Part shown: positions 1 through 7,136 of the stretch, piece by piece
Position numbering within the stretch: the stretch's first letter is position 1
Layout: the number at the start of each line of letters is the position of its first letter
Assembly (NCBI RefSeq): GCF_002753895.1
Contig: NZ_NJER01000001.1
Coordinates: 1,114,910 to 1,178,909, forward strand
DNA length: 64,000 nucleotides
Reading direction: 5' to 3'
Source of the DNA: Halobacteriovorax sp. JY17
GTDB taxonomy: Bacteria > Bdellovibrionota > Bacteriovoracia > Bacteriovoracales > Bacteriovoracaceae
Program-made: the position numbers and the translations under genes
The notes under the pieces: model-generated
The model's input: the letters and a program-made list of their open reading frames with translations, nothing else
Told to the model about the DNA's origin: nothing
Database searches by the model: none

Positions 1-2
1 AG

Positions 3-3000
3 TATGCAAGCGGAACTCTAAATACATACGGAAGTGAATATAGCTCAGGAGCAACAGTTGTTGGATATGCAACAAAACCTAAGAGTGGTGTAGGAGGCTT
101 TCTATCTTCATCCTCTACTGCAGGCCTAAATAGAGGCGCAATGATTCTAGATCATGAATTTGAATTTTTAAATGCATCAGCACAAACTGCAACAATAAAT
201 ACAGATATAGCTCTAACAAGTAGATTGAAAATTAGTCAAACTGGAAATGTAGGTATTGGTGTTGCTGACCCCGATGCAAAGTTAGAGATTAATGGACAAA
301 TAAAAATAACTGGCGGAGGAATTGGCGCTGGAAAAGTTTTAACTTCAGATGCCGATGGACTTGCCTCATGGACAACACCAACTTCAGGAACGGTTGCCTC
401 TGTTTCAGCAAATGCACCTCTATCAGTAACTAGCCCTACGACATCCCCTGATATTTCTATATCACAAGCAAATACAACTACCGACGGTTACTTAAGTTCA
501 ACTGATTGGAATACATTTAATAATAAGCAAGCTGCTCTTCCTACAGGTGGAACGACGGCGCAATATCTTCGTGGGGACTTAACTCTCTCAACTTTTTTAA
601 ATGATGTTCTAGCAAGTGTTCTCACTGGTTATACAGTTGGTGCTGACACTCCCCTCGCCGCAACTGATTCAATAGTTTCTGCCTTTGGAAAAGTTCAGGG
701 ACAAATTAATGCTAATAATACTTCTATCTCAGCAAACACTACGTCGATAGGAACGAACGCAACTGATATCGCAACGAATGCAGCGGCGATCACTGCTAAT
801 ACTACAAATATTTCTTCTAATGATACGGACATTGCCGCCAATACAGCGGCCATAAGCTCAAACGATACAGACATAGCTCAAAATGCAACCGATATTGCTG
901 CGATCAATGAATCTCAATGGACAACTACAGGTTCAGATATTTACTACAATACAGGAGATGTTGCTATTGGGACAACAACACCTGCTGCAAAGTTAGATGT
1001 AAGAGGTACACTCGGCTTAAATAATGGTACCTATATATGGAACAAGAAAGTGGGACTAGGTCACGCTGATGCGAGCTCTGGGAAAAGAGTTCTCCTAACC
1101 CTTCCAACATCAACACATACGGCAGAGGTTACGATTAGATCAGCAAGAACAACAAATGATATTACATCAAATATTCTTGCGAAATTTAACACTGTTCTTA
1201 CTCAAGAAAATACTGTTTTTAGAGTTCTGTCCGCTGAAGTCTCTGGAACGCTTGCCACTTACCAATGGTATTTTGATAGCTCTACAGGGACTCCCTATTT
1301 AAGAATTGGGCAAGGTGGAAATACATTTACATATACAATTACAGTTAAAACAAATATATCAAACGAACCTACTGCAGAACTAGATGATGGGACAGCCCCC
1401 GTATTTCCTACAGTTGAGCCTCAATATGCGTTTAGATCTACACAAGACTCTGATCTTAAAATACAGACAGCAGGTAGCGATAGAATGGCAATAGACAATA
1501 CTGGAAACGTTGGTATTGGAACAATTACACCTACTGCAAAATTAGATATTCATGATGGTTTTAATCAAATAACGAGAACGGAGAATGACTCCACTTCAAG
1601 AGGACACTTAGTTCTAAGAAGAGGCGATGGCACAGGAGCAACAGCTTCTATTAATTCTGAAAACTCAGGAGCTAATGATGTGAGCGCAATAAGCTTTCAC
1701 ATAAATTCCGCCGAAAGAATGAGAATTACAAATGCAGGAGCAGTTGTGGCCACTTCATTTCAAGGTGATGGTTCAAGTTTAACTGGCATTACTGCAGATA
1801 GCTCTAGCAACAATGTAAATGCAGTTATAAATGCCGATGCTGATTCAAATTCTTCCGGAGATATTCTCTTTCAAACAGGTGGAACAACTAGAGCGAGTAT
1901 TTCAAACTCAGGGGATATGTCTCTTGGAAGCTCTATTGATTCTGGTGCCGGAGCGAATGTTTTTAGTGTTGGATCAACGACGGAAGATAGTGTCGTAGCT
2001 CTTGGAGAAGACACAAATAATAAAGCGGATATGAAATGGAATAGTTTTACCAACTACCTATCTTTTGGAACAAAGAATGCTGGTACAAGCTACATCGATA
2101 CTCTTGTTGTTAAGGACGGAAATGTTGGAATTGGTACAGCGGCTCCAGAAACGACATTAGATGTGGCAGGAAATATTTTAATTGGGGAAAAGCCAAATTC
2201 GGGTACTCAAAAAACAAGTATAATAGCAGCTCAGCAATCAGACAATGGAGTATCAGAGGGGAATAGTGTTCCAGGTAATAACTTAGAGTTTAGGGCCGGA
2301 ATAGGTACTGGCTCTGCCGCTAATGGGGATATTAGTTTTACAACTGAACATGTAACAACTGTTTTTGGAAATGGTATAGCTCACGGTGCTGGAAGCAAGA
2401 AAATGATTATAAAGTCTTCAGGTAATGTTGGTATTGGAACAGAAAGCCCTTCACAAAAACTTCATGTGAATGGAAGCATTAAGAGTAATGGCGCCGTATA
2501 TAGTAATAAGTACTACGACAAGCCATTACAAATCCCCGATGGTTGGGTAATCGGTGACTACTGGGAAGTCGTCCAAGTAGCCCCCGAAGCATCAGGAGCT
2601 TCAGGTCAATGGAAAGTTCATCTATCAGGGACAAGAGGAAACTGGACAGAAGGTAGTACTTACAAAGTTTCCTCCACTCATGCTAGCTCATCAGTATGGA
2701 GAGAAGCTGCACAAGAATCAGAAACAACTTATACTAATATCACTAAATGTTTTACCGTCGATGTTAATCCAAATGCAAACAGTCCTAAGTTTAGAGTTAG
2801 AGCAATCAAAGCCAGTGCCAGCTGTGGTATCAGTGCAGTAATGCAGATGAAATTAAGCATTAATTCAGAGGGACATAATGCCTCATGGACAGAATTAACT
2901 GCAACAGGAAATGATACGACAGTATCCTCGTATCAATCAATGGGTAATGATTGGAATCTGTACACAGGTTCGCCTCGTAATGATAGTTACTTGGCAATTA

Positions 3001-3545
3001 GAGCAACCTCAAACGGAAGAGTCGGAATTGGAACTGCGGCGCCAAGTGAGCAACTAGAAGTTAACGGGAACGTTAAGGCAGCGGCTTACCTTTACACTTC
3101 TGATAGAAGATTTAAAAAGAATATTGCAACAGTTACAGATCCTCTTGAGAAAGTGCTCTCTCTTCGTGGTGTATTCTTTGACTGGAGAACAAATGAATTT
3201 GATCAATTTAATTTACCAGAAGGTAAAGAGTATGGATTTATCGCACAGGAAGTTGAAGAGGTCGCTCCAGAGTTAGTTAACACTGGAGAAAATGGATATA
3301 AGTCTGTTAAGTATGGAAATATCACTTCCCTACTTGTTGAGGCATTCAAGTCACTAGAGAAGAAAATATCTTCTTACTTTGAAAGTAATGATAAAGAAGT
3401 GAGAGAATTAAACAGAAAAATTGCTTCTCTAGAAGAAGAAAATAAAGAGCTTAAACAAAGCTCTGCTAATAATCAAAAACGCATTGAAAAAATGGAAGAA
3501 GACCTTCAAAATATTTTAAAACAAATGAATAAGAAGAAAGACTAA
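3..3545 (+). CDS. Trimeric phage-tail-like adhesive fibre with C-terminal Peptidase_S74 intramolecular chaperone (5'-truncated by window edge)
   Basis: Frame is open from base 3 (YASGTLNTYGSE...) into the 141..3545 ORF. It has repeated GNVGIGT motifs, an Asn-rich heptad coiled coil (IATNAAAITANTTNISSNDTDIAAN), the S74 signature YTSDRRFKKNI...LRGVFFDW...GFIAQEVEEVAPELV, and a terminal coiled coil. Confidence 0.85.
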   Translation, partial: YASGTLNTYGSEYSSGATVVGYATKPKSGVGGFLSSSSTAGLNRGAMILDHEFEFLNASAQTATINTDIALTSRLKISQTGNVGIGVADPDAKLEINGQIKITGGGIGAGKVLTSDADGLASWTTPTSGTVASVSANAPLSVTSPTTSPDISISQANTTTDGYLSSTDWNTFNNKQAALPTGGTTAQYLRGDLTLSTFLNDVLASVLTGYTVGADTPLAATDSIVSAFGKVQGQINANNTSISANTTSIGTNATDIATNAAAITANTTNISSNDTDIAANTAAISSNDTDIAQNATDIAAINESQWTTTGSDIYYNTGDVAIGTTTPAAKLDVRGTLGLNNGTYIWNKKVGLGHADASSGKRVLLTLPTSTHTAEVTIRSARTTNDITSNILAKFNTVLTQENTVFRVLSAEVSGTLATYQWYFDSSTGTPYLRIGQGGNTFTYTITVKTNISNEPTAELDDGTAPVFPTVEPQYAFRSTQDSDLKIQTAGSDRMAIDNTGNVGIGTITPTAKLDIHDGFNQITRTENDSTSRGHLVLRRGDGTGATASINSENSGANDVSAISFHINSAERMRITNAGAVVATSFQGDGSSLTGITADSSSNNVNAVINADADSNSSGDILFQTGGTTRASISNSGDMSLGSSIDSGAGANVFSVGSTTEDSVVALGEDTNNKADMKWNSFTNYLSFGTKNAGTSYIDTLVVKDGNVGIGTAAPETTLDVAGNILIGEKPNSGTQKTSIIAAQQSDNGVSEGNSVPGNNLEFRAGIGTGSAANGDISFTTEHVTTVFGNGIAHGAGSKKMIIKSSGNVGIGTESPSQKLHVNGSIKSNGAVYSNKYYDKPLQIPDGWVIGDYWEVVQVAPEASGASGQWKVHLSGTRGNWTEGSTYKVSSTHASSSVWREAAQESETTYTNITKCFTVDVNPNANSPKFRVRAIKASASCGISAVMQMKLSINSEGHNASWTELTATGNDTTVSSYQSMGNDWNLYTGSPRNDSYLAIRATSNGRVGIGTAAPSEQLEVNGNVKAAAYLYTSDRRFKKNIATVTDPLEKVLSLRGVFFDWRTNEFDQFNLPEGKEYGFIAQEVEEVAPELVNTGENGYKSVKYGNITSLLVEAFKSLEKKISSYFESNDKEVRELNRKIASLEEENKELKQSSANNQKRIEKMEEDLQNILKQMNKKKD

Positions 3546-3554
3546 GAAGGTCTA

Positions 3555-6500
3555 ATGAAAAACTATAACTTGATATTCACTCTCCTATTTACCTTCTCGC
3601 TAAACTCAAATGCAATCAATACTGTTGCAACAGGGTTTCAAGTTGCTCCTGACGAAATTAAAACTATTGTTGCTCATGGACTCTGTAAGAAAGTTTGGAA
3701 TACAAGCTCAACTGCTGAATTTATTGCAACGAAGACCTCCCCTGAATGGTTGAATTTCATCGCCAACCACCCAACAGAGTTAACAGTGAGATCTTGTCAG
3801 GCCAATTGTTCTAATCTTCAAAAAATGGGAATTACAACATCAGGAATTTATAATTTTGATTTTGATGATGCAGGCCCTATTGCCCCTTTAGATATTTACT
3901 GTGATATGACTAATGATGGTGGTGGTTGGACAAAAGTTTTTAAACACAATACAGCTGGCGGTTATTTTTCAAGTCTTACAGATGCTAAGAGCAAGAACGT
4001 TACTGCCCCCAATGGAAACCTCTACTCAATCCTAGATAAAATGGACGCTCTTAAAAGTGCCCATGGTCTAACCTTTAGATATAGAGATACAACAAATGGA
4101 AACCAAAATATTTGGTTTCAAAGAAGTAATCCAGTCTATGACACAAAAGTAATGGGCTATCGCCCGATTGAAATTGAGAATTCAAGTAATTACTGGGCGG
4201 GACTAGAGAATGGGAATAGGCTTTCAAATGGAAGAAATAATACCAACAAGTCCCTACTAGACGGATCTGTTGAGCATTCAAATTGGTGGTATAGTGTTGG
4301 AGCGACAGTTGCTCATAGTGGAAATATACCTGCCTTTAATTCAGTAAGTACTGATGAGGTTGAACTCTTTGTTCACACTGGCGGTTTAAAACCAATGAGC
4401 TGTTCTCATATTGTTGAACTTGGAGATCAAAAGGGAGATGGAATCTATACCATTTACCCTGATCAAGTGAATGCTTTAAATGTCTACTGTGATATGACGA
4501 CTCTAGACGGTGGCTGGACTCTCTTCTATGCCAATGCTGCTGATCCAGCAATGCCAGTAAAGAAATCATTTAAAGAATTTCGAGATGAAAATTACGGTCT
4601 GTCTGTTACGGCAGGAAACTATACTTCACCCAATACTGTCGGAATGTTAAACGCAAGAGACTTCCCTGCCACAACACAAGTAATGGCCAAAGATATTGGG
4701 AATTGGACTTCCGATATGTATGGAGTTCTCTCGTTTAATCATAATGGTATTTTTCAAGATTTCGTTCAAGAAAAGTTAGCAAACTCAGATGACTCTTGTA
4801 ACAACCTTCCGGGGGCGCAGAACTTCTTCTATGAAACAAGTAATGGAGCAGGCTTCTATTTTGATAAAGCTCACGACTATGGAGTAGGAAGCTTCGGCTG
4901 GTTTGACTGCTTTGCCTCTCCTCCTGCTCAAACTGCGTCTGCCACAGATGTCGAAGATTATACGAGGCACTTTATCTATAGCACAGGAGACTCTACTGAT
5001 ACGCAAAGAGTTCGTGGAGTTGCCGGATGGAACTCTGGTGATGCCAATGTAAAAGCTCGATACTTTATAAGAGATAAATTAGACAGGCCGCAAAGCTGTA
5101 TGGATATTCTCTTAAGTGGAGAATCTAAGGGCTCTGGGACTTATACTATTTATCCAAGAGGAAGTGCTATTACTGTCGAATGTGACATGACCACTCATGG
5201 AGGAGGATGGACTAAAGTCTGGCACGGTTACCCAACAGAGGCCTACGTAAATTCGACAGCAAATGAAAGCTATTCAAGATCAAATAAAATACCTTTCAAC
5301 GAAATGATGATGAAGGGGGAAAACACAGGTGAAACAGTTGTTGATCAAACTATGGAAACTGCTTATCTTGACGATACAATTGTCGGCTACTACCAGAGTG
5401 TTATCGCTCAAGCAGATGCAGCTTCTCCAACTGTGAGCTTCCATGACTTTGAGGGTAATCAAGATGTGAAACTTGTAGGCGGAAACTTCTTAAGAGGTTA
5501 CGGAAATATTTGGCGCTACTTTTGGACATGTATTAACGTAAGCTCATCATCAAATATCTATACAGGTGGAGGCTATGCACCCGGCTGTAAATCACGAGCT
5601 ACCTTCAACACCGCTTCTATTAGTACATGTGTGAGCACGAATAACGATTATTGCTCCAATGCCTTTGATAGCACTGAGATCGATAGTGGACTAGGTCTTA
5701 CTCTTAAACAATACCAAGAAACTTCAACATGGGTAAGATCTCTTCCTTCCATGACTTCATGCCGAGACATTCTCGATCAAAACTACTCTCACGGCAGTGA
5801 TGTCTACCTTATTGATCCAGATGGACCAGAAGGAAGTAATCCTCCATTTAAAACTTACTGCGATATGGAAACTGATGGCGGAGGCTGGACACTCACCTGG
5901 TCAAATACGCGGGAAGGAACAAACAAACCAGTCACAAACTTATCTTATTCTGACGCTGTCAACACACTTCCAAGGTGCTCTAGACCGGCCTCATCAAATG
6001 CATTAGACTCTTCGGGAAATTGCTCTTACATCTCTCTCTCAACTATGCCTTATAGTGATTCTAAGTATGTTAATTACTTCTTAGGACTCAAGCACTGGGA
6101 TAATATAGCTCAAGACGATGATTTTGAACTCATGTATCAATGGGAATACGCCTATAACGTGGGTATTACAAATTCTTATAAAGCAGACATTACAAACTTT
6201 AACCCTGCAGATAATTATCGACTCACAATGCATAATTATCAAACACTTCTTGGAGGAGTAATCTCTCCCCACAGCACTACTCACAATGGAGAGCAGCTTA
6301 CAACAATGGACGCCGACAATGATAATCATGCAAGCAACTGTGCGACGCTCTATTCAAATACTCCTTTTTGGTATGATGCTTGCTGGTCTGGAAATATTAA
6401 TGGAGGAGGAGAAGGTAGTGATAATAGTACTTTTCACTACAACGGAGCCTACTACACTGGCTCGGCAACACAATGGGGAACAACGAGTAATGGACAAGGA

Positions 6501-7136
6501 GCCGGAAACGGATGGTTCTTCATCAGAGAAAAGAAAAGTAAGAACTTTCCTAAAAATTGCCAAGATATTTTAGAAAGAAATCCTGACGCAACTTCAGGAG
6601 TCTACTCGATTGATATTTCACCTGGCTCACCTGATACTAGACAAATGGTTTACTGTGACATGGAAAATGACGGAGGGGGATGGACCCTACTCTTTAGCCA
6701 TAATATTAGTGGAGGGTACTGGACAGATGCAACCCAAGCGAATGCTCTTGGAAATCTAAACCCCAATCCTAATCTTGCAAAGTATTCCCTACTCAATCAC
6801 ATAAAGTACTTGCGCTCAGATGGTAAATTTACTTTTAAAATGGAGTGGCCAGGAAATGCGAATGTTAATATTTGGTCACAGACAACCGATCCTTCAATAG
6901 ATCAGCCCGTAGCTGGTTATCAAGCAATAAGTGTAGATTCGACAGGCTCCTATTGGGGAGGTCTTGAGAGAAATTGTACAGCAGGTTGTACTTCTTCCTT
7001 TGCAGATGGCTCAGTGGGCGCCTCATCAGGCTCCACTTGGTGGTATGCGATTGGTTCTTATGCTGATTATGGTGGAGGCTCAATGCCAGGGCCAAGTATG
7101 ACCCCAGTCCCTCACGTTCTACTTTGGATTAAGTAG
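3555..7136 (+). CDS. Secreted protein with five tandem fibrinogen-related (FReD-like) modules; putative lectin/adhesin
   Basis: Signal peptide. Five SC..I...SG.Y...(Y/E)CDM..(D/H)GGGW modules near 3897, 4485, 5178, 5856 and 6651. Module 4 carries the fibrinogen-C-like HNG...TMDADND...NCA...WYDACWSGNING motif. Confidence 0.8.
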   Translation: MKNYNLIFTLLFTFSLNSNAINTVATGFQVAPDEIKTIVAHGLCKKVWNTSSTAEFIATKTSPEWLNFIANHPTELTVRSCQANCSNLQKMGITTSGIYNFDFDDAGPIAPLDIYCDMTNDGGGWTKVFKHNTAGGYFSSLTDAKSKNVTAPNGNLYSILDKMDALKSAHGLTFRYRDTTNGNQNIWFQRSNPVYDTKVMGYRPIEIENSSNYWAGLENGNRLSNGRNNTNKSLLDGSVEHSNWWYSVGATVAHSGNIPAFNSVSTDEVELFVHTGGLKPMSCSHIVELGDQKGDGIYTIYPDQVNALNVYCDMTTLDGGWTLFYANAADPAMPVKKSFKEFRDENYGLSVTAGNYTSPNTVGMLNARDFPATTQVMAKDIGNWTSDMYGVLSFNHNGIFQDFVQEKLANSDDSCNNLPGAQNFFYETSNGAGFYFDKAHDYGVGSFGWFDCFASPPAQTASATDVEDYTRHFIYSTGDSTDTQRVRGVAGWNSGDANVKARYFIRDKLDRPQSCMDILLSGESKGSGTYTIYPRGSAITVECDMTTHGGGWTKVWHGYPTEAYVNSTANESYSRSNKIPFNEMMMKGENTGETVVDQTMETAYLDDTIVGYYQSVIAQADAASPTVSFHDFEGNQDVKLVGGNFLRGYGNIWRYFWTCINVSSSSNIYTGGGYAPGCKSRATFNTASISTCVSTNNDYCSNAFDSTEIDSGLGLTLKQYQETSTWVRSLPSMTSCRDILDQNYSHGSDVYLIDPDGPEGSNPPFKTYCDMETDGGGWTLTWSNTREGTNKPVTNLSYSDAVNTLPRCSRPASSNALDSSGNCSYISLSTMPYSDSKYVNYFLGLKHWDNIAQDDDFELMYQWEYAYNVGITNSYKADITNFNPADNYRLTMHNYQTLLGGVISPHSTTHNGEQLTTMDADNDNHASNCATLYSNTPFWYDACWSGNINGGGEGSDNSTFHYNGAYYTGSATQWGTTSNGQGAGNGWFFIREKKSKNFPKNCQDILERNPDATSGVYSIDISPGSPDTRQMVYCDMENDGGGWTLLFSHNISGGYWTDATQANALGNLNPNPNLAKYSLLNHIKYLRSDGKFTFKMEWPGNANVNIWSQTTDPSIDQPVAGYQAISVDSTGSYWGGLERNCTAGCTSSFADGSVGASSGSTWWYAIGSYADYGGGSMPGPSMTPVPHVLLWIK

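Follow-up and report, generated by a model that had tools for sequence, protein, structure and literature searches.

A five-module protein with fibrinogen-like heads, encoded directly behind an S74 (MAT-type) fibre gene in Halobacteriovorax sp. JY17, is a candidate lectin-like adhesin

In a 64,000-nucleotide stretch of the genome of Halobacteriovorax sp. JY17 (hereafter the window; NCBI RefSeq assembly GCF_002753895.1, contig NZ_NJER01000001.1, positions 1,114,910 to 1,178,909 of the forward strand), we analysed a gene at 3555..7136 (+) whose product carries five modules with the head of the fibrinogen-related domain (FReD), and which is located directly downstream of an S74 fibre gene of the mosaic adhesive trimeric (MAT) type. 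The domain composition of the product, its conservation, its operon linkage with the fibre gene, the swap of its terminal cassette and its relationship with a phage protein were all directly observed. Based on these observations, we consider the chances about even that the product is a secreted, multivalent, lectin-like adhesin acting together with the S74 fibre in prey recognition. Prey recognition by Bdellovibrio-like predators is a long-standing open question, and MAT fibres are the first adhesins identified (PMC10769870). The domain family itself is already known, being annotated (NF040941) and widespread in bacteria and phages. New relative to the literature searched are the S74-fibre/FReD gene pair, the shuffling of modules together with a head-anchored cassette swap, and the presence in gp35 of phage KVP40 of the body type shared by modules 1 and 5 (M1 and M5). 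The literature on fibrinogen-like proteins of bacteria and predators (Bdellovibrio, Halobacteriovorax, Myxococcus) and on prokaryotic intelectin proteins yielded nothing on these proteins.

Organization of the open reading frame

The region 3555..7136 (+) is a single open frame of 1193 amino acids (aa), containing five copies of the motif C[DE]M..GGW, whose cysteines are at aa 116, 312, 543, 769 and 1034. Five stretches of the protein were matched by the Pfam Fibrinogen_C profile (PF00147; E 4.7e-51), and five by the NCBIfam model NF040941 (GGGWT_bact), with a whole-protein score of 245.7 bits against a cut-off of 30. In a six-frame search of the whole genome (3.47 Mb), exactly five YCDM..GGGW heads were detected, each individually above the NF040941 cut-off (E 1e-13 to 5e-18). 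Because these are the only matches in the genome and all of them fall inside this one open reading frame, their accumulation is not due to chance. The five CDM..GGGW modules described in a first-pass annotation of this DNA were thereby confirmed, in what is the sole such gene of the genome. The composition of the gene is unremarkable, its GC content being 0.37-0.43 against 0.39-0.44 in the flanks.

The protein begins with a signal peptide, MKNYNLIFTLLFTFSLNSNA (3555..3614, +), recognized in the translation and aligned in position across the Bdellovibrionota homologues; it is without a lipobox cysteine, and its cleavage site is a deduced one. Directly after it follows an N-terminal domain of approximately 57 aa (3615..3785, +), defined by alignment with the pattern AINT..G[FY]..H..CKKV.N..TKT..EW..F. 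This domain was common to all 17 aligned FReD proteins of Bdellovibrionota and was missing from three aligned Bacteroidota homologues. A further copy was not detected in the same genome, nor did the domain match any Pfam or PHROG family. In the full-length structure model, it was predicted with a predicted local distance difference test (pLDDT) score of 84-87. The N-terminal domain is an obvious candidate for an anchoring or docking element. The Pfam search of the 1193-aa protein gave no match to collagen or coiled-coil families.

Characterization of the five modules

Division of the protein at its heads gave M1 (aa 78-276; 3786..4382), M2 (aa 277-508; 4383..5078), M3 (aa 509-728; 5079..5738), M4 (aa 729-994; 5739..6536) and M5 (aa 995-1193; 6537..7136, the range including the stop codon), all on the + strand. 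The features of the A subdomain, namely, the Cys...Cys clamp and the GGGW turn, are present in all five modules, and the clamp cysteines are invariant in the orthologues. Domain parsing module by module, which had been suggested as a check on the array, gave a nearly full-length match to the Fibrinogen_C profile for M4 (positions 4-187 of 221, E 1.5e-21), whereas M1, M2, M3 and M5, searched singly, matched positions 1-64 only, that is, the A-subdomain head. The proposed array of five fibrinogen-like modules thus holds for the five heads, but contains one full FReD only. As judged from sequence, the protein is composed of this one full FReD and four head-bearing derivatives, and the modules are not equivalent.

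M4 was classified as a canonical FReD with A, B and P subdomains based on the Pfam match, on the Protein Data Bank (PDB) matches, which included MFAP4, ficolins, FIBCD1, angiopoietins and tachylectin 5A, and on the alignment of the M4-type profile with tenascin FReDs, which extends across the B and P subdomains (E 9.5e-18). Only M4 possesses a P subdomain in which the DxDxD calcium site and the NCA...C disulfide are present; the sequences of M1, M2, M3 and M5 lack it. Its motif, D919-A-D921-N922-D923...N-C929-A...Y933...C943-W944 (6309..6383, +), was defined from the orthologue columns and the alignment with MFAP4 and tenascin: D919-x-D921-N922-D923...N-C929-A...C943 is invariant across 27 orthologues, and the motif lines up with H.G..FST.D.D.D..NCA..C of the two animal proteins. 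The earlier description of M4 as a near-complete FReD keeping the fibrinogen-C P-subdomain pattern is in agreement with these results. M4-type modules also possess an insertion of approximately 55 aa after the head, with an additional Cys pair (C808, C823).

M1 consists of a FReD head and a short body (HN.AGGYF, YSIL, NIW.Q..NP, WGGLE, DGSV..W.YAIG), without the calcium site and the NCA..C disulfide. M5, the C-terminal module, is a paralogue of M1 with an exchangeable body at aa 1046-1193; the two modules are 38% identical over 179 aa (E 1e-41), which bears out their reported internal paralogy. By this alignment, M1 and M5 are genuine paralogues of a shortened FReD type of approximately 200 aa, well conserved, and lacking the calcium motif and the second disulfide. 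A profile of this type aligned with the tenascin FReD over positions 4-166 of 199 (E 1.6e-11). The B subdomain is recognizable in M4; M1 and M5 align to tenascin up to position 166 of 199, yet in the hhalign comparison with M4 only their head is covered.

M2 consists of a FReD head and a body for which the profile alignment extended past the head only with intelectin-1 (positions 4-126 of 230, the score being dominated by the head); the best PDB match was lamprey serum lectin. The M2 body is thus possibly intelectin-like. The second half of M2 (window 4750-5050, aa ~400-500) is the least conserved stretch of modules 1-4, where even close relatives share 45-48% identity per 100 aa, and may represent a second variable, ligand-facing region. 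M3 consists of a FReD head and a strongly diverged, Cys-rich body, characterized by a stand-alone model and Foldseek; it is the most conserved module among the orthologues (mean pairwise identity 65%), and sequence searches with it gave no match past the head.

Structure models

M3 folded alone with 26 orthologues gave a model with a pLDDT of 84.6 and a predicted template modelling (pTM) score of 0.84. The Foldseek search with this model returned FReD or intelectin structures only, at a weak level (E ~3e-4, template modelling (TM) score 0.26-0.40), with local fits that were good over approximately 107-133 columns. From the length of these local fits, M3 appears to keep about the first half of the FReD fold (roughly the first 110-130 residues), with the ligand-binding half replaced. 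The model of the full-length protein had a pLDDT of 67.3 and a pTM of 0.68. Its best PDB matches in Foldseek were FReDs (E ~1e-8), probably through M4, the search giving no per-module ranges. Within the same model, aa 271-440 of the M2 region had pLDDT values mostly of 83-90.

Linkage of the FReD gene with an upstream S74 fibre gene

The 3' 3.5 kb of the S74 (MAT-type) fibre gene occupies 1..3545 (+), its frame being open at the left edge of the window; the complete gene (L036:8420-14455) starts 2490 nucleotides (nt) upstream of the window and encodes 2011 aa. The product has a signal peptide, a long fibre, a Pfam Peptidase_S74 match (E 8e-16) and matches to PHROG tail-fibre families. The S74 intramolecular chaperone/protease domain (PF13884) is located at 3099..3278 (+), where SDRRFK, beginning at 3099, corresponds to the SDxxxK motif as defined for S74 in PMC10769870, and a C-terminal coiled coil follows. 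The upstream gene accordingly shows all three features of S74 MAT fibres, i.e. the signal peptide, the long fibre and the C-terminal S74 domain with SDxxxK. The mature tip of the fibre (aa ~1556-1833) is not conserved even in comparison with Halobacteriovorax marinus, while the S74 chaperone is 72-82% identical; at the level of these alignments, a variable tip with a conserved S74 chaperone is the MAT mosaic pattern.

The two genes are separated by a 9-nt intergenic spacer (3546..3554, +), and a ribosome-binding site, GAAGG, overlaps the stop codon of the fibre gene (TAAGAAGGTCTAATG). The next gene downstream of the FReD gene is ffh, in convergent orientation, and the flanks consist of ffh, a HAD hydrolase gene and dus. 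Since ffh is convergent, the fibre gene and the FReD gene form a two-gene unit. The only full-size S74 gene of this genome adjoins its only GGGW gene.

To count such pairs in related genomes, we required that an S74 gene immediately precede the FReD gene in the same orientation and either overlap it or end no more than about 10 nt before it. Of 201 genomes sampled from the phylum Bdellovibrionota, 31 carried the FReD head. Pairing was observed in 16 of these 31, the related genomes being non-independent samples: in 8 of 10 domain-positive genomes of the same family (G000, G009, G095, G058, G190, G050, G138, the last with two pairs, and G088), and in 8 of 13 of the Bdellovibrio family (G072, G152, G164, G156, G136, G099, G126 and G192, with G152 and G164 counted from coordinates only). 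The junctions in the relatives are likewise tight, with overlaps or gaps of 2-9 nt. Several units of the Bdellovibrio family consist of the S74 fibre gene followed by a FReD gene of 475 aa and then one of 488 aa. The same pairing was found in named records of B. bacteriovorus Bd16, s4 and YOA24, of Pseudobdellovibrio, and of Bacteriovoracaceae metagenome-assembled genomes. In B. bacteriovorus strain kdesi (L042:5043-8655), two FReD genes follow a 234-aa open reading frame that scored no S74 in the phmmer scan; it has a coiled-coil end like that of S74 tails and an unrelated N-terminus, and may be the remnant of a truncated fibre gene.

Outside the phylum, S74-FReD pairing was detected in five Bacteroidota loci, whose architectures differ from those above. 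Four of these loci, from Aquirufa, Sediminibacterium and Flavobacterium, encode an S74 protein of approximately 320-330 aa followed after 2-6 nt by a FReD-head protein of approximately 450 aa (L081:4342-6690, L086:4328-6657, L087:4304-6648, L089:183-2522). The Pfam search, run on the partners at L081 and L087 only (Aquirufa and Flavobacterium), identified an F5/8-type-C (discoidin) domain in addition to the FReD head. The Flavobacterium pair is located inside a co-directional cluster of large proteins, in which the neighbours were without a Pfam match. At the fifth locus, from an uncultured Bacteroidetes (L077:2342-6630), Pfam identified a collagen-repeat and S74 protein followed by a protein with collagen repeats, PKD and a FReD head. 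That the pairing recurs in two phyla, and in several architectures, speaks for a functional link between the S74 and FReD genes. Most single-head proteins of other families have no adjoining S74 gene.

Module shuffling and exchange of the C-terminal cassette

Each module of 120 homologues was classified against M1-M5. The order was M1-M2-M3-M4-X in Halobacteriovorax, M4-M5-M5-X in Bacteriovorax and Peredibacter, and M4-M1-M5 or M4-M1-X in Bdellovibrio; the order M1-M2-M3-M4-X was met only in Halobacteriovorax and Bacteriovoracaceae. Among 27 five-module orthologues, the mean identity of modules 1-4 was 53-65%, while identity in the fifth body (aa 1046-1193) went down to 4%. Two relatives with 73-79% identity in M1, M3 and M4 were 14-17% identical in the fifth body, with heads approximately 60% identical, and in a sliding-window comparison with one relative (G095) the identity broke just after GGGWT(L). 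This break behind conserved heads indicates that, as far as can be read from the alignments, the head behaves as a constant adaptor behind which the bodies are exchanged. The M1-like fifth body of the JY17 protein is present in only two orthologues; the commonest terminal body (...GNEGIVPAY.ATEVCYSGKG.C.F.F.LR) stands at the end of some Bdellovibrio forms as well. Taken together, the shuffling of module order and the swap of the terminal body suggest a variability like that of receptor-binding proteins.

Distribution of the family and relationship with phage proteins

The closest homologue is that of H. marinus, with 75% identity. Approximately 25 more five-module orthologues were found, together with forms of four modules (Bacteriovorax, Peredibacter) and of three (Bdellovibrio). 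All NCBI-named homologues carry the NF040941 name. Beyond the phylum, where a search with a 10-sequence alignment covered related loci, the head was detected in Flavobacteriia and other Bacteroidota, Myxococcota, bacteria of the candidate phyla radiation (CPR), others, and phages; the phage families with a FReD head were phrog_10681 and cyanophage proteins (BFVD matches). The similarity of M4 to animal FReDs is distant (E ~1e-12 to 1e-17).

Without its head, the M1/M5 body shares 36-50% identity with gp35 from Vibrio phage KVP40 over two segments in the N-terminal region of the latter, and it matched phrog_16097 (E 1e-26). KVP40 gene 35 (L115:3212-5896, 894 aa) is annotated as 'hinge connector of long tail fiber'. 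The M1/M5-type body of gp35 begins with the G(D)W of the head and lies in two pieces, residues 9-80 and 264-341, with approximately 180 inserted aa between them. In gp35 the domain is thus fused into the fibre protein, whereas in the Halobacteriovorax protein it is repeated, YCD..GGGW-headed and free-standing. The family thereby presents the fibrinogen head outside animals, as what appears to be a constant adaptor with very different bodies, one of which is common to a phage tail-fibre protein.

Comparison with known systems

All five heads qualify for NF040941, the name already given to the orthologues in RefSeq; the model spans the 46-aa head only and is silent on bodies, function and gene context. 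With animal FReDs (ficolins, tachylectin 5A, FIBCD1, MFAP4, tenascin, angiopoietin), which are also the top structural matches of the full-length model, M4 has in common the A, B and P subdomains, the DxDND calcium motif and the NCA..C disulfide. Differences from the animal proteins are the absence of a collagen or coiled-coil oligomerization stalk in the Halobacteriovorax protein and the presence of five modules per chain; in addition, the residue after the second Cys is Trp in M4 but His in the aligned MFAP4 and tenascin. The region of the calcium site and acetyl pocket of ficolin and tachylectin is missing in four of the five modules, and the ficolin analogy is direct for M4 only. The ficolin layout of collagen and fibrinogen-like head is matched by the uncultured Bacteroidetes protein at L077. 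The resemblance of M2 to intelectins or X-type lectins (human ITLN1, Xenopus XEEL, lamprey serum lectin) is dominated by the common head, and the intelectin ligand site lies beyond the M2-aligned part, which ends at position 126 of 230.

MAT fibres are experimentally shown prey-glycan adhesins of B. bacteriovorus (Caulton et al. 2024, PMC10769870). The S74 subgroup of MATs has the same architecture as the upstream fibre gene, known here from its sequence: a long fibre with a signal peptide, a variable tip and an S74 domain containing SDxxxK. The FReD protein is a separate polypeptide encoded downstream and not itself a MAT fibre, but both would serve prey recognition. PMC10769870 and those of its supplements consulted here contain no mention of fibrinogen-like partners of MAT fibres.

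Possible roles of the FReD array

If the product acts as an adhesin together with the S74 fibre, the two would be made together from the two-gene unit, and the FReD array would be Sec-exported by the predator. The S74 chaperone would cleave itself off, and the fibre would then present its variable beta-helix tip. The array would add several different carbohydrate-binding sites for glycans of the prey envelope, either docked on the fibre via the N-terminal domain or placed beside the fibre on the predator surface, and specificity might be retuned by module shuffling and by the swap of the C-terminal body behind the conserved head. In this scheme, we infer that the array reaches the cell surface, that it binds glycans, that its target is prey and that it contacts the fibre physically. 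A closer form of contact is conceivable, although we give it a rather low probability: the FReD array could be a trans-acting receptor-binding subunit of the S74 fibre, with the N-terminal domain docking on the tip exposed by S74 self-cleavage. A partner acting in trans is favoured because S74 fibres discard their C-terminus, so that they have no C-terminal lectin tip as in non-S74 MATs. If true, predators and some Bacteroidota would possess a two-component recognition device with swappable cassettes, like the fibre-plus-adhesin pairs of phages, and it would be explained how S74 fibres, with the C-terminus discarded, acquire lectin heads. A conserved lectin-type partner behind S74 fibres would also represent a genetically testable second component in the tractable B. 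bacteriovorus, where an S74 fibre gene is followed by two FReD genes. The importance of these results is limited, as the domain family was already annotated and everything stated on function is what we infer.

Several observations weigh against a shared role of the array and the fibre in prey recognition. Only M4 retains the P-subdomain region used by ficolin-type lectins; the hhalign comparisons of the M1/M5, M2 and M3 profiles with the M4 profile aligned the heads only (approximately 50 aa); and the TM score of M3 did not exceed 0.40 against any FReD. The C-terminal half of M1, the P-loop of M4 and the body of M5 were poorly modelled in the full-length prediction, in the case of M5 probably due to the different fifth body in most orthologues. 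A signal peptide alone is no proof of surface exposure. Between close relatives, no obvious co-variation was found of the fibre tip and the terminal FReD cassette, and the three-module Bdellovibrio forms, which share the N-terminal domain, have no S74 gene next to them, so the two genes need not adjoin. The last two points are also what would be expected of an independent secreted lectin or agglutinin, sharing only operon and regulation with the fibre and binding prey or other glycans alone, without fibre contact; the many bacterial GGGW proteins without S74 neighbours point in the same direction. We regard such a lectin as a possible but rather unlikely explanation, as it is at odds with the tight junction conserved across two phyla and differing architectures, and with the M1/M5-type body being covalently within a phage tail-fibre protein.

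In phages, chaperones or adhesins of the fibre are classically encoded immediately behind the tail-fibre gene. This position, together with the conserved synteny, would suit an accessory of fibre assembly or maturation, like the tail-fibre assembly proteins that phages encode downstream, rather than an adhesin. We consider such an accessory improbable: the fibre already has its own S74 intramolecular chaperone, the product consists of 1193 aa of lectin-type modules with a canonical calcium-site FReD, and its hypervariable terminal cassette is typical of receptor binding rather than of chaperoning. A lectin directed at targets other than prey, such as chitin or particles in the sea, matrix polymers or the glycans of the predator's own envelope, has a low probability as well, if slightly higher than that of the accessory. 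Chitin and other acetylated polymers are ligands of some animal FReD proteins, among them FIBCD1, which is also a PDB match of M4; against this stand the concentration of the family in predatory lineages, its pairing with a prey-glycan-binding class of fibres, and a locus free of glycopolymer-synthesis genes (flanked by ffh, the HAD hydrolase gene and dus). Finally, the full animal-type motif set of M4 might suggest that the predator recently acquired animal FReD genes by horizontal transfer. This origin is very improbable, and the capture of an animal gene was rejected as a candidate, on account of the remote similarity of M4 to animal FReDs, the deep and diverse bacterial and phage family, and the normal GC content. 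The first-pass annotation had described eukaryote-like domains repurposed in a mosaic, multi-module predator protein. The mosaic is real, with secretion predicted, one canonical FReD, and a family that spans Bacteriovorax, Peredibacter and Bdellovibrio; the repurposing finds no support, the domain belonging to a curated bacterial family (NF040941) with members in Bacteroidota, Myxococcota, CPR bacteria and phages.

Additional observations on the fibre gene

A sigma-28 (FliA)-like motif, CAAAGAAATCTTCAACATACCGATTA, was found at L036:8349-8374 (window ~-2561..-2536), 46 nt upstream of the fibre start in a 170-nt intergenic region. The loose pattern HAAA-N14-17-RCCGATWW had only four matches on both strands of approximately 75 kb, one of which is at window 11723. 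The fibre gene contains an internal direct repeat of 300 nt with 82% identity, the copies being 1395 nt apart (window 449-748; L036:9964-10263), and in the fibre protein a segment of approximately 200 aa is duplicated (GYL.STDWNTFNNKQAALPTGGTTAQYLRGDL...). A second Peptidase_S74 match in the same genome is located at G000:C3:280614-280793 (-), in an open frame of only 166 aa, and may represent either a fragment or a very short S74 protein.

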